A DNA stretch of 64,000 nt, from NCBI GenBank assembly GCA_052327205.1, contig CM126216.1, positions 70,370,001 to 70,434,000 on the forward strand, given 5' to 3'. The notes beneath the pieces were generated by a model. The model was not told where the DNA came from. It did no database searches and saw only the letters and a list, made by a program, of their open reading frames with translations. This DNA is from Somniosus microcephalus. Its lineage: Eukaryota. Below are positions 1 through 39,497 of this stretch, piece by piece (position 1 is the first letter of the stretch; each line of letters begins with the position of its first letter). A program made the position numbers and the translations under genes.

Positions 1-1132
1 AATGAAAAATTACACAAAAGTAGATGCACAAGGGAAAGCACATTGGTGTATCAACAAATGTTAGTGCTAAGTGTTGTTTTGATTGGACACATCAATGTTT
101 TTCTTTGCACCACTTTCGGGTCTTGTCCATTTTTGCCTCAAACCTCGGAAGTGGCTTTTTCACTTGGAGTGAATGGTGACACATTATTTAACCTCGAGCA
201 TTGGGCCTTTGGGTGAGAGCAATGGCTTGGTCATTGTATGGATGCTTTATTGGTGTTGTTGGGGTGGGGGCAGGGAGGTGGTAAGTTAGTACAGCATGTG
301 GCTGCATTGCAGCAAGTTAACTAAATCTGGCCATGATGAGGCCATCCCAGGCAGTAACGTGCACCACTGCTGGTGGCATCTGCATCTCAGCTTCCTCCTC
401 CTCCTCCTAAGAGGCTGTGTGCTGTGCGCCCTGCTCCCCCTGTAGCTCCAATCCTTGCTGCTGCACTTTGTTGTGCAGCGCGCAGCAGACGACGATGATT
501 CTGGAGACCCTGGTTGGTGCGTACTGAAGGGCTCCTCCAGACCTCTCAAGGCATCTTCAGCATGCCTATTGCTTGTTCTATTACACATCTGGTGGACATG
601 TGGCTCTCAATATAACACTCCTCGGCCTCAGTACTTGGCCTCCTTAGGGGTGTTATGAGCCACGTCTTCAGTGGATAACCCTTATCTCTAAGCAACCAGC
701 CAGTAACTGTTTGGAGGTGCCAAGAGTCGAGGATGGTGGAGTGGCGCAGCATGAATCACGACAGCTGCCAGGGAATCTGGTGCACTCATGCATAATATTC
801 TTTTTATGGTTGCAGACGAGCTGCACATTGAGGGAGTGGAAGTCTTTGCGATTCACAAACACTCCTGGATGATGATAGGGTGCCATCATGGCCACATGTG
901 TGCAGTCGATGACGCCCTGCACCTGTGGGAAGTCAGCCAGAGCTGCAAAGCCAAGCGCCCGCTCAGTAACACTGACTTCATCAGTGGCAAAGTTAATATA
1001 ATTGGCTGACTTGTGAATCATGGCATTGGTGACCTGTGTGATGCATCTGTGGGTGGCTGACTGGGAGATCTCGCAAATGTCTGCTGCAGATCCCTGGAAG
1101 GAGCCTGAGACGAAGAGGTTGAGGGTACTGGT

Positions 1133-1400
1133 TGATGTAAGAAAAAGGAGGCTTACCATCAAGTAACTTTAAAGTAAGCTTTAAGTAACTTATAAACACA
1201 CTATATACAAGAGAGGTCTTTACCATGCCTCTGGTAGAAGCCTCTTACAATACTGAACAGACCAGTATTTATACCAGTCCAACAGGAAGTGACACATGAC
1301 AGGAAGTGAGGTATGTACACAGTTCATAGTTCATAGTTCACAGTTCACAGTTCACAGGAAGTGATGACATAACTTCCCGGAAGTTATTATTTTTATCACA
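1133..1400 (-). repeat. 3' LTR of Gypsy element 1
   Basis: Direct repeat of 5443-5710 with TG..CA ends; TATAAATA box on the minus strand. Confidence 0.97.
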
Positions 1401-1433
1401 TTCTTCCCTCCTGCAGGTTTAGGAGGTTGTGGT

Positions 1434-4400
1434 CTACCTTTTGGTCCGCAGCCGCCGAACAAGGAAGAGTCGCACCCGTTTGGATTCCCGTCGTAGAGGG
1501 TCGCTGGTCCGCTTACATGCGGTTGGCCATTGGCCAGAGTCCGTGTGGCCTGGATTGCCCTGTGAAGGGTCGGGGAGATCATGGCTTCGAGTACGAGCCC
1601 CAATAGGTTCAAAGTCAGACTGCCTCTGTTCAGAGGGAGGTGCAGAGCTGGTCTGTGGCAGACCAGTACTTTCATGCGTGGTACTGGGAGGGTCGCAACC
1701 TTGAGCACGGGGTTCTACCGGCACCAAGCTAGTTGGTGTCCGATCAGGATCCTGGAGAGGGGTACCCGATAGGTCCCAAGAGTTTCCTGGTGAAATGCCA
1801 TCACCCGATGTCCCACTAGGTCCTGGTGGGCAGGGAGCCAGATCCCGTAATGATACGGTAGATTCTCGGCCGTCGGAATATCGTATGTTTGCATAGGTGG
1901 GGTTGGCATCGGTTAGTTCGACCTCGTCTACAAGAGGGTCATTTTTAGACGTCCGAACGTATCTTCGGAGTAATACAGGTCCAGGAGTAGTTAGCCATGA
2001 CGGGAGTGATGTCCCATGAGATGAGCGACGCTGGAATCCAAAGAACCGCTCATGAGGTGTAGTATTTGTGGCTGTAGAAAGCAGGGACCGTATAGAGTGC
2101 AATGCATCCGGAAGCACTGTTTCCCATTGCTGGTCTGGTAGGCCCCGAGATCTTAAAGCGAGACGTACGGAATTCCAGATGATACCGTTATACCTCTCTA
2201 CCTGCCCATTTCCGATGGGATGGTATGGTGTTGTTTTGCTTGTAGCAATTCCCCGTTCTGAGAGGTAGTCCTTGAGTTCCCTCGACATAAAGGATGGACC
2301 CCGATCTGAGTGAATATAAGCCGGCATGCCACAGAGAGAAAATACCTGCTCAAGGCAGGAGATTACTGTGGACGCCAGCATATTGGAGCAGGGGAAGGCA
2401 AACGGAAAACGTGAATATTCGTCGATCATGGCGAGCAAATATGTGTTCCGAGTTGAAGAGGGCACTGGGCCCTTAAAATCGATGCTAAGTCGTTGCATCG
2501 GTTGGGTTGCATGTATGAGTATACCATCTGAGGGGCGGAAGAACTGAGGTTTTAATTCCGCACAAAGCCGGCATTCTGAGCATATTTTCTTTACATCTCC
2601 AGTGGAAAAAGGGAGATTCCGTGATCGTACGAAATGTAGCATGCGCGTAACGCCAGGATGGCACAAACCATTGTGGACATCCATGAGGGTGGAGGATGAC
2701 ATAGTGGAGCAGAATGCCCGTGTGAGGGTGTCCGGGGCCACATTCTCCTTGCCAGGCCGATAGAGAATGGTATAACCAAAAGAGGCCAGTTCCATCCTCC
2801 AAAGTTGTATTTTATTATTCTTAATTTTGGTTCGTTTTCGATTATCGAGCATGAAGGCGACTGATCGTTGGTCCGTGATCAATGTAAAGTGCTGGCGAGC
2901 TAGAAAATGGTTCCACTTCCGTACTGCCTCTATGATGGCTGTGGCTTCTTTCTCAACCGGAGGATAATGTAGCTCGGCACCTTGTAAGGTCCTGGACATA
3001 AATGCTACAGGACGACCTTCCTGATTCAGAGTAGCCGAGATCGCCACCTCCGAGGCATCACATTCAACCACGAAAGGGAGATTCTCATCAATGGAGTGAA
3101 GAGCCGCTTTCTCCAACTGTTTTTTGAGAAGGTTAAAGGCTGCAACAGCCGCTGTTCCCAGTGGAAATGATCTAGCATGCAGCAAGGGTTGGATTTTGTC
3201 CGAAAAATGAGGAATCCATTTAGCGTAGTATGCAAACAGACCGAGAGCCCGACGTAAAGAAGCCGGATTCTTAGGTGACGGGAGCTCATGGAGCGGGCGA
3301 AGTCTTTCTGGGTCTGGCTTAATGATACCATTGCCTACGCAGTAGCCAAGGATGTTGATGGTCGGTTGCGACTCAACAGATTTGGATTCATTCAGGGTCA
3401 AATTACGGCGATGGAGGGCATCCCGAAATTTTTGGAGGTTGGAGTCGTGTTCCTGTTGATCGTGACCTGCAATGGTAATGTTATCAAGATAGGGAAAAGT
3501 GTCCCTTAGGTTTTCCTGCTTAACCAGGCCATCCATTGCCCGTTGAAAGACAGCCACTCCATTAGTAACCCCGAATGGGAGGCGACGAAATTGGTACAGC
3601 CGTCCATTAGCCTCAAAGGCTGTGTACTGCTTATCTGAGACCTTCAAGGGTAACTGATGATAGGCACTTTTTAAATCGTAAGTTGAGAACACTTTGTATT
3701 CGGCCAGTTTATTAACCATATCATCAATGCGTGGCAATGGGTAGGCGTCCAAGTCGGTATATTGATTGATGGTTTGCGAATAATCGATGCATAGTCGCTG
3801 TTTGTGAGGTTTTAGAGGGTTCTTGACAATGACGACTTGAGCCCGCCAGGGCGACGAACATGGTTCAATGATATCCTCTGCTAGAAGTCGAGAGATTTCA
3901 GCCGCAATAAAAGATTGGTCTTCCTGATTAAAGCGCCGCGATTTCGTTATTATCGGTTGGCATTGAGGCGGAATACTGGCAAATAATGAGGGTTCATCAA
4001 GTGAAGCTGCTGATAATGCACAAAATGGTAATTTAGACGGTATATTAGAAATAATAAGTCCGGGTTTGGATCCACCAAACTCAATGGTGAGTTTCTTATG
4101 CTGTTTTTGGAAGTCCAGTCCTAAGAGGAGATCACTACATAAGTCCTTGAGCACCGAAAGTCGGGTGGAGGGATACATACGACCATGAAGTGTCATATCA
4201 ACAACACAAAAGCCGGAGATTCTGGTATTAAGTGATGACTGGGCCATCGCAATTGCCTGGTCCGATGGGAAGACATGTAGTTTCAATTTCGCAACAATCT
4301 GTTCCTTAATGAAACTATCAGTACTTCCTGAGTCAATTAAGGCATCTAAGGTATGCCCTTTAATTGAAATTTTTGTGGCAGCATGAGACAGGTTCTGTGG

Positions 4401-5360
4401 GCAAGCAGCTGTAATTGGTGTCGTTGCACAGAGAGTGGCTAAAACTCTCGGTGTGCTTCTTCGGGAGAGAGCTCGAGAGGAAGCTTGATAGGTCCTAGCT
4501 GGAGCATCTTGATAGGCCCTAATTGGGGCAGTTCGGTAGGCCTTAGCTGGATTGGCCCTCGTAGAGGCCCTTGATAGGCAAACTTTAGCAAAGTGTCCTT
4601 TTTTCCCGCAATAACTGCAGATTGCATTGCGAGCAGTGCAGGTTTTCCTAGGGTGAAAAGCATCTCCACAAAAGAAGCATTCCTTCCTAGATTGCCAAGA
4701 GGCTGCTAAAGTGGGGTCGTCCTCCTCTTCTTCATCAGAATTATCAGAATTAGATTCCCCCATGATAGGGTTCACCTGAGACCGCTTGAATTGTCTGGTT
4801 GCAGCTACAGCAGCAGATCGAGATCTGGGCAGCTGATAGAGGTCTGCATTTCTCTTTGCCAAATCCAGTGAACAAGCTAGGTCAAAAGCTTTTTGTAGCT
4901 CAAGTGTTTTACTTTCTAGCAGACGCTGGCGTATAAATGGAGAGGCAATCCCGCAGATGAAAGCATCACGAATCATTTCTTGGCGGTACAGCTCAGCTGA
5001 GGCTGCCTGAAAGTTACAATCTACGCTGAGCCTGCGAAGTTCTTGCAGGAATTCGTCAATTGATTCCCCTGGCCCTTGTCGGGCTGTGGCCAGTAGATGT
5101 CTAGCATAGACCTCATTTGGGGTCTTGGCATACAGTTTCTTAAGTGCCCGAATCACCTCATCGTAATTATCCCATTCATCAACATATTCGAACACTTTTG
5201 GGGTCACATAATTGATAAGTATCTTCAATCTAGCAGGAGCATCCGCTTCACATTCATCCAGAAAATTCTCAAAAGTACGGTACCAATGCTTCCATACCCT
5301 GCCAGCTGCTGGTGCATTCGGGTCCAAGTCCAGACGAATAGGTCTAAGGATTTTCTCCAT
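1434..5360 (-). CDS. Gypsy Gag-Pol polyprotein, 1308 aa (Gag CCHC knuckles, protease, RT, RNase H, integrase)
   Basis: CSYCGKKGHFAKVC knuckle; LIDSGS protease; RT motifs LPFG and YLDN; RNase H ECDAS; integrase H..HPG..C..C, DFKG, HSDRG, NGQVER; no stops. Confidence 0.97.
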   Translation of the reverse strand: MEKILRPIRLDLDPNAPAAGRVWKHWYRTFENFLDECEADAPARLKILINYVTPKVFEYVDEWDNYDEVIRALKKLYAKTPNEVYARHLLATARQGPGESIDEFLQELRRLSVDCNFQAASAELYRQEMIRDAFICGIASPFIRQRLLESKTLELQKAFDLACSLDLAKRNADLYQLPRSRSAAVAATRQFKRSQVNPIMGESNSDNSDEEEEDDPTLAASWQSRKECFFCGDAFHPRKTCTARNAICSYCGKKGHFAKVCLSRASTRANPAKAYRTAPIRAYQDAPARTYQASSRALSRRSTPRVLATLCATTPITAACPQNLSHAATKISIKGHTLDALIDSGSTDSFIKEQIVAKLKLHVFPSDQAIAMAQSSLNTRISGFCVVDMTLHGRMYPSTRLSVLKDLCSDLLLGLDFQKQHKKLTIEFGGSKPGLIISNIPSKLPFCALSAASLDEPSLFASIPPQCQPIITKSRRFNQEDQSFIAAEISRLLAEDIIEPCSSPWRAQVVIVKNPLKPHKQRLCIDYSQTINQYTDLDAYPLPRIDDMVNKLAEYKVFSTYDLKSAYHQLPLKVSDKQYTAFEANGRLYQFRRLPFGVTNGVAVFQRAMDGLVKQENLRDTFPYLDNITIAGHDQQEHDSNLQKFRDALHRRNLTLNESKSVESQPTINILGYCVGNGIIKPDPERLRPLHELPSPKNPASLRRALGLFAYYAKWIPHFSDKIQPLLHARSFPLGTAAVAAFNLLKKQLEKAALHSIDENLPFVVECDASEVAISATLNQEGRPVAFMSRTLQGAELHYPPVEKEATAIIEAVRKWNHFLARQHFTLITDQRSVAFMLDNRKRTKIKNNKIQLWRMELASFGYTILYRPGKENVAPDTLTRAFCSTMSSSTLMDVHNGLCHPGVTRMLHFVRSRNLPFSTGDVKKICSECRLCAELKPQFFRPSDGILIHATQPMQRLSIDFKGPVPSSTRNTYLLAMIDEYSRFPFAFPCSNMLASTVISCLEQVFSLCGMPAYIHSDRGPSFMSRELKDYLSERGIATSKTTPYHPIGNGQVERYNGIIWNSVRLALRSRGLPDQQWETVLPDALHSIRSLLSTATNTTPHERFFGFQRRSSHGTSLPSWLTTPGPVLLRRYVRTSKNDPLVDEVELTDANPTYANIRYSDGRESTVSLRDLAPCPPGPSGTSGDGISPGNSWDLSGTPLQDPDRTPTSLVPVEPRAQGCDPPSTTHESTGLPQTSSAPPSEQRQSDFEPIGARTRSHDLPDPSQGNPGHTDSGQWPTACKRTSDPLRRESKRVRLFLVRRLRTKR

Positions 5361-5442
5361 GATGGGTGGTTCCCTGGATCCTTAATTCCGAGTTTGTCCG
5401 AAGGTCTAGTATTCGTGAGTGTAAATACTAAGTTACTTAAAT

Positions 5443-5710
5443 TGATGTAAGAAAAAGGAGGCTTACCATCAAGTAACTTTAAAGTAAGCTTTAAGTAACT
5501 TATAAACACACTATATACAAGAGAGGTCTTTACCATGCCTCTGGTAGAAGCCTCTTACAATACTGAACAGACCAGTATTTATACCAGTCCAACAGGAAGT
5601 GACACATGACAGGAAGTGAGGTATGTACACAGTTCATAGTTCATAGTTCACAGTTCACAGTTCACAGGAAGTGATGACATAACTTCCCGGAAGTTATTAT
5701 TTTTATCACA
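5443..5710 (-). repeat. 5' LTR of Gypsy element 1
   Basis: Direct repeat of 1133-1400; lies upstream of the gag ATG at 5360 on the minus strand. Confidence 0.97.
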
Positions 5711-9600: not shown

Positions 9601-11471
9601 TCATAATGTAACAGATTCATAATCTTGGGACTCTGGAGGTATTGCCAAACAATTCTCCGTGCCTAAATTTGCAGTTGCAGCTGTGACATATTCTTGCTGC
9701 ATATTTCCATCAGTAGGAGGAGGATGTACAATAGGATGAGTTGGTGTTTTTATCAGGCTTACAGTTTTATCCAAGGTCACATTAGTAACTGGAATATTGA
9801 CTTCAGGTGAGTCAACCTCTCTTACTGTACAGGTCCCTTTTTCATCACAGGTTGCAACCAACTGCGAGTCATCCTGCAGAGGCAATGCCATGTGCTTGAA
9901 GTTCAGAAGATTTTGCTCAGCTGCACGTGCCACATGAACTGAAGTCATGGATCTGACTATTTTACAGGAACTATTTAAACACTGCCTGACAGGCGAGACA
10001 GGCGAGGTCTGCATGATAGCAATCTGATGCTCAGGACTGTGGAAATTAATATTTCTTATAGGGTTCTGTTTGTGCACAGTTGGTGAATGTTTGGAAGGAC
10101 TCTGGTGAGCAGAAGGCATGACATGGTTTTCAGGGGCGTAAATGTCCCAGGCCTGCTGATACAAAATTGAGGCCTGTTCAGCAGGTTGTGGTTTATCTGA
10201 CAATTCTAATGCTTTAGGTGCACTGACAGTAGCATCTTCTGGTTTTGGTAACACAAGCTCCTTCTGAGCAAGTGCATGATTTTCATCATGTAGAATCTCA
10301 GTCATTGGTTCTGAAATAATCTGATCATACTTATACTCAGTATCTGATAAATTGTCATACTGAGAAACATTTGAAACCCGTCTTCCACTTTGGAACTCAT
10401 CCGCATCTTTTATTTCTGTGCTGTTCAAATCAACTGAAGTTTCTTGCGTTAAATCACTAAAGGATGATTTCTCCTCTTCTGGGGATGAAAGCTTCACTAA
10501 CAGCATAGGTTGTGGTTGATCAACAGGGGAATATGCTTCCAATTGTTCAGGGACATTCAGGCCAGAATAAGTATGCAATGTTTCTTGTGGATTTGGGAGT
10601 AACAAATGCATTTCCTCAGAGAACAGTTCTGCAGGGGGAGGCTCTGGGAAAGGTAATGGCGTATTCTCATTGTTTTTCAAATCTGTTAGTCCATCACTTC
10701 TCGATGGGGAGGGCTCATCACTGCTGTATTCTTCATCTAGGGATTGCTCATGCACGGACTCTGAAGCTAGTGCCTGGCATTTCTGCGGAGACTTTGTAGC
10801 CATATTTGTGAGTACAGAAACTTGATCAATTTCTGAACAGCATGCAGATTGTTCTTGCGGAGATTGGGTTTCAGCTATTTCAGTTGTTCCTGTATACTCA
10901 GCTTTGCTCATGTCTTGACAATTGATCATACTCGCTTCTGGAGAGTCGGTGGTTTCTTTTTCTGAAACTATAAAGTTAACTTCTTTTAAACTTGGGATTG
11001 CATCATTTTCTGCAATACAAGTCTCACTATTTTGAGCAGGTAGGATGTCTTCCTTCTTTGGAGGCTGCACTGTATCTTTTTCTGGGATAGGAGGTGGACT
11101 CATTTCTGAAAGTACCACTTCATCTTCTTTTGGTAATTGGGTTTGGTCTTTTAGAGGAGACGTGGAGTTATCATGGACTGGAGCTTGAGCTTTACAAATT
11201 TCCACCAAATGAGCATGGCTCTCTTCTAGAGAAGGAGTCTCATTCTTTTCTGGAGAAGGAGCCTCACTCTTTCCCACAGGCTCAGGGACAGAAGATTGGA
11301 TGTAGCTTTTTTCTGGTGATTTTCTGTCAACCTCATTATCAGGTTCAAAGTCATTTGATGGAGGATTAACCTTTTCATTCTTGCCATTGGCCAAGATGTT
11401 GGTCTTCTCTGGTTTTAAAGTGACAGAAATTTCCTGCCCTAATGGTTTGTTGGGAAACTCATCAGGTTTTG
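9601..11471 (-). CDS. USP6NL: Last coding exon of a USP6NL (RN-tre)-like TBC Rab-GAP gene (long disordered C-terminus)
   Basis: Acceptor ...ccattttag| at 11472-11473, phase 1. The exon opens (A)KPDEFPNKPLGQ, resembling USP6NL GKEDEYPKKPLGQ; internal RRVSNVSQYDNL resembles KRGSTASQYDNV; C-terminus ESVTL* resembles ESVLL*. About 620 open codons. Ortholog versus paralog cannot be resolved here. Confidence 0.8.
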
Positions 11472-12390
11472 CTAAAATGGATCAAAAAAAAAATGCCATT
11501 TAATCTGAAGATAATATAAAATGTAAAAGAGACAAATATTGTGTCTGTAAATTGTGCATACCATCTAAAATAATGTTCTTGCAGAATATAAGACATTGGT
11601 TCTATAGTACAGTATATAGGTTCAGTTCATTTAATTATTTGTTGTGTTAGATTTGGCTTTTCTTCGCACACATTTGTGCCTATTGATAAGATTCATAGAC
11701 TCTGAAGAAAACATTAAAACAGCATTTTAATCTCAGCAGAATGAGGGATAGAAGGAAAGGAAAAACAGGTCTGTTTAACCCTGCAACAAGTACTCCTCCT
11801 AGTGGCCAATGAGTCCCACTGAAAGTTTCTGTGGTTAAGTTGCACGAGGGGAAAATAGTGAAGGTGGCAACATTGCACTTGGAAGATAATCTAGAAAGGC
11901 CACGAAATTAAAATTTGCTGCACCAGTGTCAGGCACAGTCAGGACACTAACATGTTGCAATACAGAATGATAGGAGATAGGGTCACTCCTACAATTTCCT
12001 GCATGGTGAAGGCACCTGATGTAATCTGAGCTACTGCTGGGGACAAGGAGAAGGTCAAAGCAATGGAGGTATTTCCCCAGAAGCAGAAATTGTGAATCAA
12101 CTTGGGTCCATCCATCACCTCTCAGCTGGTTTCAGAATGACACCATCAGTGGCCTGGCCACAGGATATTCGGGTGCAACTTTTAACCAGAGAATTGTACC
12201 TGGAATAGGATAACCTAAAAGAGGGGAAAGAGGAGAACTGTTCATCATCAACAGCACCCAACATTCTATTTTGTCTGAACTGTTCAAATATTGATTTTAA
12301 TGTAAACTTTTCAAAAGAAAAAAATACTTTATCTAAAGAATTCAGTAAAATTATAATTTATAATTATGAAAGAATCATGAAATATTTGTT

Positions 12391-21005: not shown

Positions 21006-23455
21006 AGAGTCCCTTTCATGACCTCAGGGCATCCTAAAGCGCTTTACAGCCAATTAAGTATTTTTGAAGTGTAGTCATTGTTGTAATGTAGGAAGGCGGC
21101 ATGAGGCATGTGCAGTAGTGTTGCAAATAGTCACATTAAGTCAAATCATAAAAGACCCATAAATTGAATGTAAACCTCTGCTGTGGCTCCTTAATGGTTC
21201 AGTGGGAATGATGTGGTACTCGGCCAGACAGTCCAGTTAAGCCTTGGGTTCAATTTCACGTCTATGCAGTCAGCTGATCTCTACCAGAGCAGCAGTGGTG
21301 GCTATAATTAACCTCAATATCCTTAGGTTACATCGGGAGGAAAAAAACAGAGCTCCCACTCTTAACCTACATCCAGTGAACCCTGCTGGAAAGTGCACAC
21401 GTGAAAAAGCCAGGATTGAGCTCTTCTGTGATGTCCCAAGTCAAAAGAACTGCAACTCAGCATGAATTATCTCTTCCAGGTGATAAGGGGAGGAAAATGG
21501 AGGGAGGTGAGAGAGAAGAGAAAAACTGTAGGTATAGTATCAGCAAATATCTAATGGGACCTTTGAAATCAATTGATTGATGTTACAACAAAAGAAATGA
21601 ACCAGACTAAAAATTGTGTAAAAACAATTGTTTTTTTTCCTATGATTATATTATTGTTATTGTCAAGGACACGGGTTGGCATCTTGATACAGACATATAG
21701 AGAGAAAAGAAAGCAACAATAGAAATGCTACTCCCAACAGAGAGACAGAAATAGAAAATTACACACATCTAATTTTTCTTGTATTCTGCACATTTCCCCG
21801 TGTATTTCCTCAGTTTTTAAAAAATATTCAAGCACCAAGGATCAAAATCTCATAATTGTTTAATATTTTCATACTTTTTTGGTGCATTCTCATTTAGTGC
21901 ATGTATACAGTAAAAGACAGAAGTTACTAAAATACAAGACTTGGTGGAGGGGGTAATCACAGGCTACAGAAGAAATTCCGACTGTGATCGAGGGTCACTG
22001 CTAATATTTCAGGCTCAGATCAAAATTGGTTGCACTTTCTTCCCCTAATGGCTGAGTGGGTAAATGCTGCTCTGGGTGTTGTACTGAACTTTAAAGATCA
22101 GGAAGGTTCTGGGTTTGGCCTTTGTCCCTGCCGAGTAGACTGACCTCAGCTGGGTACCAGTAAGAACACTCAGTTAGGGTAATTTTGACTTTGTGCAAAA
22201 TGGGTGATAATAGAAACATAGAAACATAGAAGATAGGAGCAGGAGTAGGCCATTCGGCCCTTCGAGCCTGCTCCGCCATTCAACGAGATCATGGCTGATC
22301 ATCCAAACCTTAGCACCTGGTCCCTACACCGACAGCCATCCCACCCAAGCCCTATCCCCGTAACCCCACGTATTTAATCCCCCCTAACACTAAGGCCCAA
22401 TTTTTATCATGGCCAATCAACCTAACCTGCACATCTTTGGACAGTGGGAGGAAACCGGAGCACCCGGAGGAAACCCACGCAAACACGGGGAGAATGTGCA
22501 AACTCCACACAGTCACCCGAGGCCGGATTTGAACCCGGGTCCCTGGCGCTGTGAGGCAACAGTGCTAACTGTTGTGTATGTAATATGTGTGCTACTTTGA
22601 ACCTATGGACAGGACTGCACTACTTGTAGGGCGTAGTGATACGCAGTACCACTCCTGGCCATAGGGGTATAAATAGTACTGTGGGTACTGATCTCCCCTC
22701 AGTTCCCGCCTGTGGGCATGAAGTAAAGACCTACGTATAGTCCCTACCTCCAACCAGTAAAGACCTGTTTGAGTTATACGGTTAAGTCTTTGTGTTAATT
22801 GTTCAATACAATACACATACTTAACACTGGCGACGAGTCAGGTTCTTACCCTGCGGCAGTTGAAGAGAGGTTTCAATCATCACCACCCCACTAGAAGCTA
22901 CAGGCTTTAGGACTCTGAAGCCTCCATCAGCGACTGAGCACTGGAGTGCAGCAGCCATCCTGACAGCTTCCAGCGACTGACAGAAGTCTTTCTGCAGTTT
23001 CCTTGTTCAACCTAGGTGGTGGGGTAAGCCGTGCAGCGTCGGCTGCAAAGACAGGGCTGGGGAAGTTGGAGAAGATAAGGGCGATCGCAATCCCTGATAA
23101 GAGCCGCGGTGAAACGCGCGAGCGGGTGAGCCAGAGGCCGGGAGCCGCTTCAAGTGCGAGGCGCAGCGCGGGCCAGCGATCGGGACCAAAGATAAGGGCC
23201 GCACTCGGACTGAAAGGCGCGGCGGCTGCAGAAGCTCAAGGTGCGAGAGCCGCGGTGCACAGCGCGGGCTATCGATCGCGGCGAAGATAAGGGCCGCACT
23301 CGGGGGCTGAAGGGAGACGGCGTCGGGGGACGGGTGAAGACCGCCAAGCGCGGGAAAACCGCCATTTTGTGGGCGGAGGACGACGGCAAGAGCGGGAAGC
23401 CGCCATCTTTGATAACAAGTAAAGAAAATAAAATCTGAGAAATTGCAAATCTACA

Positions 23456-24703
23456 ATGCCTAAACACGGGAATATTAGCACCTTTGATAGTGACCTCGAA
23501 GATTGGGCCATATATGTTGAAAGAGTAAAAAATTATTGTAAGGCCAATAAAATTCGTGACCAAGATAAAGTTCTAACATTATTAAATTTAATGGGTGCGA
23601 AGACATACGGGCAATTGAAACACCTGTTATCACCAGATGAACCGGCGGATAAGACGTTCGATGAGATTGTTACTGTCCTGAAAGATCATCTAAACCCCAC
23701 GCCGCTGATGCTAGCGGAACGATTTAAATTTTACGACAGAAGGCAGCTGCAGCATGAAAGCAATGCTGAATATTTGCTGGAATTGCGTCAATTAGCGAAA
23801 TATTGCCAGTTTGGAACGGGACTGACAGATGCACTACGAGACAAATTTGTGTGTGGTTTATTTAAACAGGATACACAAAAGCGACTGCTCGAGGAGAATG
23901 AGCTGACGCTTGAGAAGGCGGTCACTATGGCAGCAGCACACGAAGCCGCAGCGAGAGGCACGGCAGTAATGCAGCTACGGTCACCGGAGCTCAGTGCACA
24001 CAAATTGGGTGTGAGTTCTGTTAAATGTTATCGTTGTGGAAAGACAACGCATGATCAGAACCAGTGTTGGTTTAAAAACCAAGAATGTAGAACTTGTGGT
24101 AGGCTTGGACATATAGCTAGAGTATGCAGGTCAGGGAAGAAGACCAGCAACAAGAAGTCACCGCAAGGAAAATACGCAAAGGTACACAAGGTGACCGAAC
24201 AGGAGTCCGATTCAGACGCTAGCAGTAATGAACTGGCTAGCTTAAGCTGTAATGAACTGGCTAGCTTAAGAGTACTCAACGCTGGTAAGGGTGCAGACCT
24301 CCAGACAATTTGGGTCACTCTTCAGATAGAAGGAGTCCAAGTAAAACTGGAATTGGACACTGGATCGGCATTGACGGTCATAAATAAGAAAGATTACGGA
24401 AGGTTATTCCAACATATTCCCCTACAGGATACGGGGATTATATTGAAAACATACACGGGGCAAAGAGTGTACCCCATCGGGAAAATAGAGGTTGCAGTGG
24501 TCCACAAGGGCGAAGACAGTCAAATAATGGACTTATATGTGATATCTGAAGGAGGTTCTCCACTACTAGGACGGGAGTGGATTAGGAAAATGAATATGGA
24601 CTGGCATTTCCTACAAACAATAACGAGTGAGAACTCGGTGAAGATAGTCGGCCCAGACTCTGGAACGGATGATGGTAAGCCCAACTCAGGTGCAAAAGAC
24701 AAA
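23456..24703 (+). CDS. Gag-protease, 5' part of the chimeric ORF (interrupted by a MITE at 24704)
   Basis: Mag-type Gag (WAIYVER, ERFKFYDRRQ, LRDKFVCG); knuckles CYRCGKTTHDQNQC and CRTCGRLGHIARVC; protease LDTGSA..LLGREW. Confidence 0.92.
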
Positions 24704-25390
24704 GGCCTAGAAATTGAGTTTGCGCTGCGCCAGGGCTTTAGCGCCGGAAGTTAGCGCCGGCGCTAAGTCCCTTTGCGCGCGCCAAAAATTCAGTAGCGCC
24801 GCGCCCAAACGGCTGCCGGCGCTACTGAAGGGTTTTAGCGCCTGAAAACTGGCACAACGCGCCGCATTGCGGCGCTATTCCGGCGCTGCGGCGCCCGCTG
24901 CGGTGCGGCAGGCTCGGGAAGTGCAGGCCTCCTCCTTCCGTTAAGGAGGAGCTGCCTGCACCCGGCCGCGGCCCGCGCAAATCTCTGAAAAAATGAGCCC
25001 GGCACCTCGGACAAGTGCCGGGCTTGCATCTGTTCCGGGGGGGGCGGGGGGGAGAAGTCCGGGGAGGGAGCTGCGGGCAGGCGGCCGGCGGGAAAGCGGC
25101 CGGCTGCCGCGCCTCCTTAAAGCGCCGGCGCAGACTCCGGCAACACTCGTTTGCTGGAGTCTTAGTTGCGGCTGCCACTGGCGAGGCGGCCGCAACTGAA
25201 TTTCGGCTTGGGGCCGGGTTACCACGGCAACCGGGACGCTGCGCACACCGATGACGTCATCGGTGCCGGCGCAGCGCTACCGGTCTACCGCCGCGGAAGG
25301 GCCCCAGGCAATTTAGGAACCGGCGCCAATTGCAGCGCTAGGCCCTCTAGCGCCGCAAAATCGGTGCTAAGGGCACTGAATTTCTAGGCC
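24704..25390. mobile_element. Harbinger-type MITE, 687 bp, very GC/CpG-rich
   Basis: Perfect 12-bp TIRs GGCCTAGAAATT/AATTTCTAGGCC; 3-bp TSD AAA (24701-24703, 25391-25393). Confidence 0.92.
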
Positions 25391-25393
25391 AAA

Positions 25394-26362
25394 GTTTCAG
25401 CACAGAATTCCACTGAGCAACAACAACATAGTTTAACTGTGGATTCTGAGTCTGGCAAGTCTACTGATGTGCCCATTTCTGAGGGACACCGGGCTCGAAC
25501 TCAACTCCATTTCAAACTACAACAGCAATTAGAACAAATGCTTCGCTGTTTTGAGCAAGAGTTGAATGCAACGAAAGAGTTCTTTGATATAGAGTTGGAG
25601 AATCTGGAAAGACAACAGAAGCAGCTGATGGAGAAAATGGAGCAGGAGCACACAAAACGTCTGATGTCAGAGGAGTTAACGGTCGGCCAACTCCTGCATA
25701 TGCTGAAGGACAGGACTCTGAAATGGGAAAAACTTGAACACGAACTTCAATATTCAAACGAAAGGGGTTCGGAGCTCTCAAAGGTTATTGGAAGAGCTGA
25801 GGTGGCAACACAGACTGAGATGACTGCAACAGAGCAACCCTTGGATGCCAAAAGTACGCTGACTCACGTCAACGTAGAACAACAGACCGCTGAAACAGCT
25901 GCTCCGGTAGAGGGATTGAATAGTCCGATCAATCAATCTCCAAAAGAAGTTGAAGTAGTAAAATCTCAAATGAGGTCATTAGTAAACGACTTGCTGAAAG
26001 CCCAGAAAAAGCTGGATGAAGAGGTACGCATGAAGAAGTCTCTTCAGGAAAGATGTCTGGACTTGGAACAAAAGCTGGCTAACGCCCAGCTGGGTATGGA
26101 GGAAATAGAAGACCCTCTCGCTGGCCTAGATCAGGACGACACCGAATATTACTATGTCCTGTCCTGCCCAACTTGTAACTTCGACTCCCACCATACAGAA
26201 ATCATGGAGGAGCACCGAAAGTCTACGGAACATCGGGAGAAGGTGGCTCTACTACGGAAAAAGGAGGAAGAGAAGGAGGAACTGCGCATGCAGCTGGCAG
26301 CTGACAGTGGAGCCCAGAGAGTCTCCAAGAAGCAGAAAAGGAAAAGTCGAAACAGAAGATGA
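25394..26362 (+). CDS. 3' part of the chimeric ORF: STK10/SLK-like coiled coil, optineurin-like coiled coils, C2H2 finger, basic tail
   Basis: In frame with gag-PR once the MITE and one TSD are removed. [34 protein letters not shown] is STK10-like; [14 protein letters not shown] and MKKSLQERC are OPTN-like; CPTC..H..H finger. Confidence 0.8.
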
Positions 26363-27999
26363 CCCATCTGAACCATTATTACCTCTACCAGATCACGCAC
26401 GTGGTCCCTCCGAACGGAGCCAATTCAGTTCGGAAGTTCAAACTGTTAAATCCATGGAAGGACTATTGAATGAGTCACTCCAGCAACGTGAACCGACTAC
26501 ACCACAGAGATTGAATCTGTGAACTGTTTTCCGCAGAGACTGAATCTGTGATCTGTTTTGACATGAAGTTATCTATGTATCTATGTTATTCTGTTATGTA
26601 AACCTGAAGTTATATATGTATATATGTTATTACGTTATGTTAAATGGGGAGATGACTGTAAAGCTAGGAAGGGAGGAATGTTGTGTATGTAATATGTGTG
26701 CTACTTTGAACCTATGGACAGGACTGCACTACTTGTAGGGCGTAGTGATACGCAGTACCACTCCTGGCCATAGGGGTATAAATAGTACTGTGGGTACTGA
26801 TCTCCCCTCAGTTCCCGCCTGTGGGCATGAAGTAAAGACCTACGTATAGTCCCTACCTCCAACCAGTAAAGACCTGTTTGAGTTATACGTTTAAGTCTTT
26901 GTGTTAATTGTTCAATACAATACACATACTTAACACTAACCACTCTGCCACCGTGCTGAATCGGCAGCTCATTTTACATCTCTCCTGACTTTGAATTAAT
27001 GGAAATAAAGATCAGGAGAGATGTAAAACGGGCTGCTGATTTACTATCACCCATTTTACACTATCGCACAAAGTCAAAATTACCCCCAGTGTATCTAGGC
27101 CAAGAAGGAATCATCCTGGCTTTCTGCTCCTGATTGCTGTTTAATGACCCTAGCTGGAAAGAGCATATGTGGCTGGCAGGTCAGGACAGGATCCAGCTCC
27201 ACTGTGATGTTCTCCAGCCCATTTGCCAAATAGCCTGCCAGCACTCACAAGGCTCTAATATTAAGAATGGGTGAGGTATCAGAGGACTGATGACACTCAT
27301 GAAAAGGCATCTAAGAATTAGACAACACCTTCATGAGGAGGAGGGAGAAAATTAGTTGCACAAATGGGGGGGGGGGGCATCTACTTCTGAAAAACAAAAT
27401 GCTGTGCATAAACGGGACTCTGTCAAGTGTTCTGAAGTGTGACTTTGCACCATTTGTTGCTTCTCGGAAAAAAGACAAAAATGTCAAAGTGCAGTACACA
27501 TCATTACTGTACATTTGAAACAAGCATTCCATAACAGGTCAAATTCTTTCCCCTGGCCACCAATGTGTCAATGTGTTTTCAGAGTTTTTTTTAATGGTTC
27601 TGTTTCTCTTCTCTTTCGCATTTCCATCCTTGCTCTTTGCTGGCAATTTGTATTATAGGAGTTGTAAAACCAGGAATTGAAGCTAAGTTTAATTTAGTAT
27701 GCACATTCTAATTTTTAATATAAAACCTGTATGAATAGTTAAATAATGAGTAATTAATTAGATCTAAGGGTATAAAATAAACTAAGTAAAAGATACCAAT
27801 ATTAAAGGGATCTGAATAACATTAAATAAATATCTGGTGTACACAAATAATAAATAGGAAATAATCAGAATAATTACAAATTAATTTGATATCAATCTAA
27901 TCCATCAACTAATTAATATTAGACCTCAAGCATTTTTATTAGCTCTGGAGATAAATTGCTGCTAACAATAAACAAATAAATAAAGATTAGATATGACAG

Positions 28000-38768: not shown

Positions 38769-39497
38769 CGAAATAACAACAGAAAATGCTGGAAAAACTC
38801 AGCAGGCCAGGCAACATCCGTGGAGAGAAATTAGAGTCGACGTTTCGGGTGAACCCTTTTTCAAAACTGGAAAGGAAATGAAATAGATCGAAGGCAGGGC
38901 TGCGATAGAACAAAAGAAGTAAAGAGACATTAAGAGGTATTCAAAACCAGACGAGATGGTAATAGGACAGTGGAGACAAAAGACGGCTCAGATTAGGTGT
39001 GAAGTGTACTGGCAGGATAAGACAGCTGCCATGTGGGAGAGAGAAAAAAAAAGTGGGGGGAAGGGAAAACTCAAAACAAAGGGGTGGAAAAAAAATATAA
39101 GTAAAAATGTAATAGGAGCAGAGGTTATGATCTGAAATTGTTGAACTCGATATTGAGTCCGGAAGGCTGCAAAGTGCCTAATCGGAAGATGAGGTGCTGT
39201 TCCTCGAGTTTACGTTGAGCTTCCGTGGAACAATGCAAGAGGCCAAGGACGGTGAGGTATCCACTGTCCTATTACCATCTCGTCTGGTTTTGAATACCTC
39301 TTAATGTCTCTTTACTTCTTTTGTTCTATCGCAGCCCTGCCTTCGATCTATTTCATTTCCTTTCCAGTTTTGAAAAAGGGTTCACCCGAAACGTCGACTC
39401 TAATTTCTCTCCACGGATGTTGCCTGGCCTGCTGAGTTTTTCCAGCATTTTCTGTTGTTATTTCGGATTTCCAGCATCTGCAGTATTTTGCTATCGT
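38769..39497. mobile_element. Penelope pLTR inverted pair
   Basis: 206-bp arms at 38769-38974 and 39260-39465 are reverse complements; flanking 15-bp direct repeat ACTGATATCTTGCGA (38757-38771, 39498-39512). Confidence 0.9.

Follow-up and report, generated by a model that had tools for sequence, protein, structure and literature searches.

Acutely transforming retroviruses carry gag-onc fusions in which host coding sequence takes the place of pol, and these viruses are replication-defective and helper-dependent. Elements with long terminal repeats (LTRs) also capture host genes: in the available text of Tan et al. 2016 (PMC5131818), spliced host RNA replaces the internal ORFs of LTR elements in the sense orientation, with microsimilarity at the joints, and such LTR-mediated retrocopies include chimeras of several genes, four at one mouse locus, and further copying rounds. 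According to the accessible parts of PMC13317346 and PMC5131818, maize Bs1 is an LTR element whose single fused reading frame combines pieces from three host genes. The mouse circRFWD2 pseudogenes have a back-splice joint fixed in the genome, 33 high-confidence copies, adjacent MMERVK10C-int LTR sequence and no poly(A) (Dong et al. 2016, PMC4897178), and in the same paper the mechanism behind circRNA-derived pseudogenes was termed mysterious; the available part of PMC5408686 adds that the location of circRNA-derived copies near LTR sequence may suggest LTR mediation. As far as the accessible text of these sources goes, LTR-mediated, microhomology-driven capture of several genes and circRNA-derived copies beside LTR sequence are both already known.

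We analysed a stretch of 64,000 nucleotides of shark DNA (the window), in which the original prediction had marked positions 25481-25663 (+) as a captured coiled-coil segment of STK10 (LOK) or SLK and had proposed a protein search and an alignment to the host mRNA as checks. The translation of this interval matched the peptide described. In the protein search, the best matches were shark STK10 with 82% identity, and no SLK-named protein was among the 120 matches listed (305 hits among 314 candidates), all 120 of which contained the PKK domain (PF12474) that the segment itself matched above the Pfam curated cut-off (E 1.5e-9). The DNA alignment to host STK10 revealed that the segment spans an exon junction, where exons 11 and 12 are joined and the 1,029-bp intron is absent; positions 25481-25568 were 93% identical to host exon 11 and 25568-25662 were 91% identical to the neighbouring exon 12. 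This splice joint was also seen in RNA reads. The host gene lies on a different chromosome (G000:C8, 167.19 Mb), where coding exons 2-15 were each mapped once within the 100 kb examined (the numbering assumes a single first exon outside that stretch). A paralog locus on C30 matched at 61% over 28 residues only, and the second-paralog stretch used for the SLK comparison (L123) was without the exon. The best protein and DNA matches being both STK10, that half of the label stands and SLK is dropped; the marked interval is a real STK10 piece but one of several in the element. Judged by sequence comparison, the segment is spliced STK10, rather than SLK, cargo inside an LTR element. It sits in a 324-residue stop-to-stop frame (25388-26362), with which a PDB sequence search returned just three chance matches (E 0.5-0.7). 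Separately, the host STK10 intron after exon 10 is of the GC-AG type, starting with GC (G000:C8:167,193,682).

The surrounding element is 4,366 bp long and keeps gag and protease, while reverse transcriptase (RT), RNase H and integrase are absent (Table 1). It has the hallmarks of Ty3/Gypsy-type LTR elements, namely a TG...CA LTR pair, a target-site duplication, a primer-binding-site-like motif and a polypurine tract, and the domain order gag-PR-RT-RNase H-IN is present in its autonomous relatives (L092 and the family X described below), the window copy having gag-PR only. From these LTR hallmarks and the domain order of the relatives, it is classed as a non-autonomous derivative of the Ty3/Gypsy type. 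No further long frame that could be env was found between the pol end and the 3' LTR in L092 and L093, nor in the window element, and with env missing it does not fit an endogenous retrovirus with a transduced host gene.

Table 1. Features of the LTR element in the window (window positions)
Feature	Position	Strand	Remarks
Target-site duplication, 5 bp	left 22565..22569, right 26936-26940	+	sequence
5' LTR, 257 bp, TG...CA	22570..22826	+	1 mismatch vs 3' LTR
Primer-binding-site-like motif	22828..22837	+	directly after LTR; common to nearly all fetched copies
Gag (two CCHC knuckles) and aspartyl protease	23456..24624	+	no RT, RNase H, integrase or env downstream
STK10 exon 9 piece 1	24625..24703	+	in frame with protease; 88% to host exon
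GC-rich MITE-like insertion, 687 bp	24704..25390	+	terminal inverted repeats, 3-bp duplication
STK10 exon 9 piece 2	25391..25484	+	85% to host exon
STK10 exon 11 (3' part) spliced to exon 12 (5' part)	25481..25662	+	junction 25567/25568; PKK coiled-coil start
Optineurin, four spliced coding exons (5th-8th; first and last partial)	25655..26106	+	in frame
STK10 exon 8 short remnant	26096..26113	+	overlaps optineurin end by microhomology
DNAJC21 C2H2 zinc finger and basic tail	26114..26353	+	in frame; stop 26360-26362
STK10 exon 8 end spliced to exon 9 start	26354..26474	+	deletion inside; now untranslated; 86-92% to host
Parent integrase frame, shortened tail	26475..26522	+	comparison with L038, L093, L099
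Polypurine tract	26666..26678	+	sequence
3' LTR	26679..26935	+	pairs with 5' LTR

The MITE-like insertion splits the frame of the window copy and was absent from 20 of 20 other loci (L001-L020), where both frames are contiguous. A relative of it, 89% alike, occupies the identical site in another family-A copy in the opposite orientation (L088, G000:C1:177.567 Mb), and the pair suggests a strong target preference. Elsewhere in the window, a separate full-length Gypsy-type element lies at 1132-5710 (-); its LTRs match each other and measure 269 bp, and its gag-PR-RT-RH-IN frame has 1,315 residues. It was rejected by sequence as the helper of family A. A 626-residue Pro/Ser/Glu-rich frame without a Pfam match at 9601-11481 (-) is probably a large exon of a host gene whose intron or flank holds the element, and a perfect inverted repeat of 209 bp with a 279-bp spacer was found at 38769-39465.

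The window copy belongs to a large family (family A). An exact 24-base pattern across its STK10/optineurin joint had 3,946 matches in the genome, where a control pattern had none. When the genome was searched with the window frame, the best 150 of 16,196 candidates were 93-100% identical, and frames of at least 730 residues were present at 111 of these best-scoring 150 places, which were selected by score. Most of the family-A copies listed have one frame of about 740 residues, running through Gag and protease into the STK10, optineurin and DNAJC21 pieces. LTR pairs were 98.1-100% identical at 19 of 21 family-A loci (mostly picked for long frames; the other two were one gapped and one miscalled pair), and likewise at 4 of 4 loci of family B and 9 of 12 of family C, both described below.

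The optineurin identity was given by 15 of 15 protein matches, the best at 70%, and the pieces were 80-91% identical to host exons on G000:C17. The sixth coding exon of host optineurin (G000:C17:85,885,344-85,885,539), which tblastn missed, has a 1-bp register difference from the captured copies that may be an assembly error or a host allele. DNAJC21 was identified through the sister copy L018 (393 hits among 455 candidates; among the 120 listed, the named proteins were DNAJC21 and the rest were unnamed J/C2H2 proteins) and was also supported by alignment to shark DNAJC21, while a single protein query for the host DNAJC21 locus gave 0 matches among 110 candidates. The DNAJC21 piece was longer, duplicated or closer to DNAJC21 in the family-A copies L013, L015, L016, L018 and L089, which suggests subfamilies or repeated refreshing from host RNA.

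A genome search with STK10 sequence not represented in the window's pieces yielded 89 matches among 92 candidates, which were mostly intronless. All six matches fetched were Gag-protease fusions, and the five that extend far enough showed STK10 residues ~386-706 followed by ~291-388. In one copy of this family B (L038), the exon order was 9 (3' part), 10, 11, 12, 8, 9 (5' part), and the STK10 pieces of the family were 97.6-99.4% identical to host exons. The joint from exon 12 to exon 8, which had 855 exact matches in the genome, uses true splice sites, as host exon 12 precedes GT and exon 8 follows AG. The insert was 1,245 nt in three of four copies (the fourth was not measurable), equal to the sum of exons 8-12, and this lap is a multiple of three and stop-free. 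A reversed-order joint at true splice sites, cargo consisting of circle exons only and the absence of poly(A) are the marks of a circRNA-derived retrocopy, and all three were found. A different kind of STK10 copy was found at L037:4268-5101 (-) (G000:C3:354.658 Mb), where an intronless C-terminus (exons 14 onward) adjoins a LINE; this is an independent, ordinary STK10 retrocopy.

The autonomous parent of family B was also recovered. Ten loci were examined from 20 pattern matches, and five were autonomous elements running from the 5' switch point into RT. On the two flanks of the insert, the parent L093 matched family B at 98.0% identity (2,212 nt) and 98.3% identity (412 nt), the parent L092 carries PR-RT-RH-IN, and family B is the parent with pol replaced by the STK10 lap. 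Intronless host exons thereby replace internal ORFs between LTRs with microsimilarity at the joints, as in LTR-mediated retrocopies. A single site in exon 9 matches both parent ends; the match is 11 nt long just downstream of the protease and 6-8 nt long where integrase ends. The 11-nt exact match is the only one between the circle and the parent pol (1 of 1,245 positions) and the longest on the circle. At the 3' switch the exact match is six bases, and matches at least this long occur at 524 circle sites, so that entry there is not special by itself.

Intermediates connect family B to the window. Among 20 plus-strand matches to the back-splice joint on C1, a sample that left out copies already found through the intronless STK10 query, all 20 had a deletion from exon 9 to exon 11; 11 were STK10-only and nine carried immunoglobulin (Ig) cargo. 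In the latter (family D, e.g. L097, L102 and L113), about three titin-like Ig domains lie in frame inside STK10 exon 8; searches with this cargo returned Ig I-set clusters with recognition below threshold and no firm gene name, titin being the best PDB match only. In family C (12 loci found via optineurin), up to at least six spliced optineurin exons occupy the place where the back-splice joint stood. Short shared stretches were found at these later joints, and nearly all cargo joints are in frame. L098:4081-4370 holds further cargo of the lineage, a coiled coil that may be cingulin-like and for which nothing firm was found in Pfam. The window copy is without the back-splice joint, retains the exon order 9-11-12...8-9, and its piece at 26354..26474 ends at a switch point identical to that of family B.

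The front half of the window element has a different history. The cargo of its family differs from that of family C by a dS of 0.16-0.22, with 0.20 for the window copy itself, while the gag dS is 1.08. A second autonomous family (X) had 4,070 motif matches, and pol followed at all 12 loci examined; the window gag-protease is 86-88% identical to X, and family A gag nests within X with support of 99/97 in a 21-row tree. Because cargo is shared with C while gag is X-like, the cargo half recombined onto the front half of X. Direct descent of the window gag from that of B/C was rejected by the 77% identity, the dS and the tree.

We consider it very probable that the cargo began as one full lap of a candidate back-spliced STK10 circular RNA (exons 8-12), copied by the RT of the element via template switching. 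The existence of the parent and its exchange of pol for exons 9(3'), 10, 11, 12, 8 and 9(5') in family B form the first step. In the second, the candidate circle would have been co-packaged with element RNA, which is possible by analogy with the circRNAs packaged in HIV-1 virions according to the accessible part of bioRxiv 10.64898/2026.01.21.700838. During minus-strand synthesis, RT would leave the integrase-region end at the 6-8-nt match, enter the circle and complete one lap, the template behind it being destroyed by RNase H, and would exit at its entry point via the 11-nt match. In the third, for which the intermediates exist, the deletion inside the cargo probably came first, and spliced optineurin exons (C) or titin-like Ig exons (D) would then have been captured at microhomologies in or near exon 8. 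The tree and dS show a fourth step, in which X supplied a new gag-protease for the cargo half, the DNAJC21 piece was taken up and an amplification of about 4,000-fold gave family A, including the window copy. Finally, family A would move with RT and integrase from X while still needing its own Gag, and the frame may be open mainly so that the RNA is translated and packaged.

Selection and transcription bear on this last step. Gag is under purifying selection, with a dN/dS of 0.16-0.25 when compared with five X copies; the protease (0.41-0.60) and the cargo (0.43-0.62) are less so. The cargo had 31.5 synonymous changes versus 22.7 in neutral simulation, a value reached in 10 of 600 runs and, with CpG weighting, in 5 of 600; for the STK10 pieces alone, constraint was not significant (P 0.08-0.12). 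Constraint on the cargo thus appears modest. RNA reads of a related organism, which has fixed-site differences from this genome, span the whole length of a family-A copy (20,114 and 18,172 reads). Reads of the first kind of run were strongly one-directional, consistent with sense RNA over the cargo, whereas those of the other run were mixed. In an index of sequencing runs, the stretch occurred under four organism labels (11 rows with at least half of the words), with no RNA run among the rows listed. The RNA data of the related organism contained 69 and 59 reads across the back-splice joint and 125 and 83 across the element-specific deletion joint; since element transcripts give an identical joint and the deletion joint is as frequent, the former cannot be separated from element RNA.

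We favour a helper-dependent element whose frame is open for its own Gag and whose tail is weakly constrained, and a function of the tail is the main rival. The cargo could be a working part of the particle, its coiled coils and zinc finger aiding Gag assembly, helper co-packaging or RNA binding, and could have driven the 4,000-copy burst. The cargo dN/dS, the synonymous excess, the stranded run, the long frames and the in-frame joints would all agree with this. However, the long frames were counted among copies selected by score, microhomology between coding sequences itself favours in-frame joints, and the cargo dN/dS resembles that of the now dispensable protease and is above that of Gag. 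The cargo was also repeatedly deleted and swapped, with STK10 cut three times, optineurin halved and titin-like cargo in the sister branch. We therefore regard a working cargo as possible, though doubtful. The favoured helper-dependent element resembles gag-onc retroviruses in its host sequence fused to gag, its displaced pol and its probable helper dependence, but it is of the Gypsy type without env, its cargo is without a kinase domain and there is no oncogenic sign.

The route by which the lap entered can also be read in other ways. A deletion between the two similar sites of the parent might first have removed pol, with the lap inserted later at the single joined site. Similar motifs do stand at both pol ends of the parent, and entry at the exit point would be explained without coincidence; the parent's base in 32 of 37 3' joints is compatible with either route. 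Such a two-step entry is nevertheless unlikely, as exact-match search found no empty pol-less element, 2 T-variant matches of 20 were autonomous, and an empty joint was present in none of the nine loci examined among 10 exact matches at the 3' site. We find it less plausible still, and improbable overall, that RT captured, by two ordinary template switches, a linear RNA in which exons were repeated through trans-splicing of STK10 pre-mRNAs or a lost tandem duplication. Such an RNA would leave an identical joint from exon 12 to exon 8 and would present the switch site twice, 1,245 nt apart, in accord with the matches at both parent sites; but no exon is duplicated within the 100 kb examined around host STK10, no exon 7 or 13 sequence adjoins the cargo in any sampled copy, and back-splicing is established as the usual source of such joints (PMC4897178). 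Although the window is rich in CR1-like LINEs, insertion of an L1/CR1-type processed pseudogene of STK10 into the LTR element at the DNA level is scarcely credible, given that pol is replaced rather than interrupted, the cargo ends without poly(A) or target duplication, and microhomology with the parent at both ends and the parent comparison contradict it.

Circle capture by template switching thus remains the preferred reading, and the result resembles the circRFWD2 pseudogenes in its non-colinear back-splice joint, many copies, LTR sequence and lack of poly(A). Unlike that case, for which PMC4897178 shows no parent or switch points, the shark family preserves the parent, both switch points and exactly one circle length, and its lap is in frame with Gag-protease and exists in hundreds to thousands of copies. 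ORF replacement, joint microsimilarity, sense orientation, multi-gene chimeras and re-copying are shared with LTR-mediated retrocopies as the available text of PMC5131818 presents them. The templates there are linear mRNAs ('circular' is absent from its main text), whereas a candidate circle is proposed here, and the accessible part of that paper contains no vertebrate family with graded intermediates and thousands of copies, both of which the shark lineage has. Pieces of three host genes in one LTR-element reading frame are likewise found in Bs1, in the accessible accounts a plant element with no circular RNA source; the shark intermediates and donors survive in one genome. In the literature searched, some of it available in part, neither this family nor a complete circle lap with its parent and switch points was described, and no paper on circSTK10 came up; what appears new is the full lap with parent and both switch points, followed by serial capture and mass amplification.

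More tentatively, the same lineage might be a standing exon-capture platform, with a circle-founded lap set by RNase H, in-frame uptake of STK10, optineurin, DNAJC21 and titin-like pieces, gag swaps and a selected working Gag tail, yielding a new transcribed gene family of 4,000 copies. The mechanism by which circles are written back, left open at its first description, here points to template switching by an LTR-element RT, and a testable rule follows: an RT bearing RNase H should copy at most one lap and exit at its point of entry. A vertebrate genome here also preserves, in many copies and with living intermediates, a record of exons shuffled serially and in frame. The family-A load would be about 14 Mb if all 3,946 matches were full 3.6-kb elements, and in these sharks fragments of STK10, optineurin and DNAJC21 in their thousands will confound annotation, RNA-seq and the calling of circRNAs.
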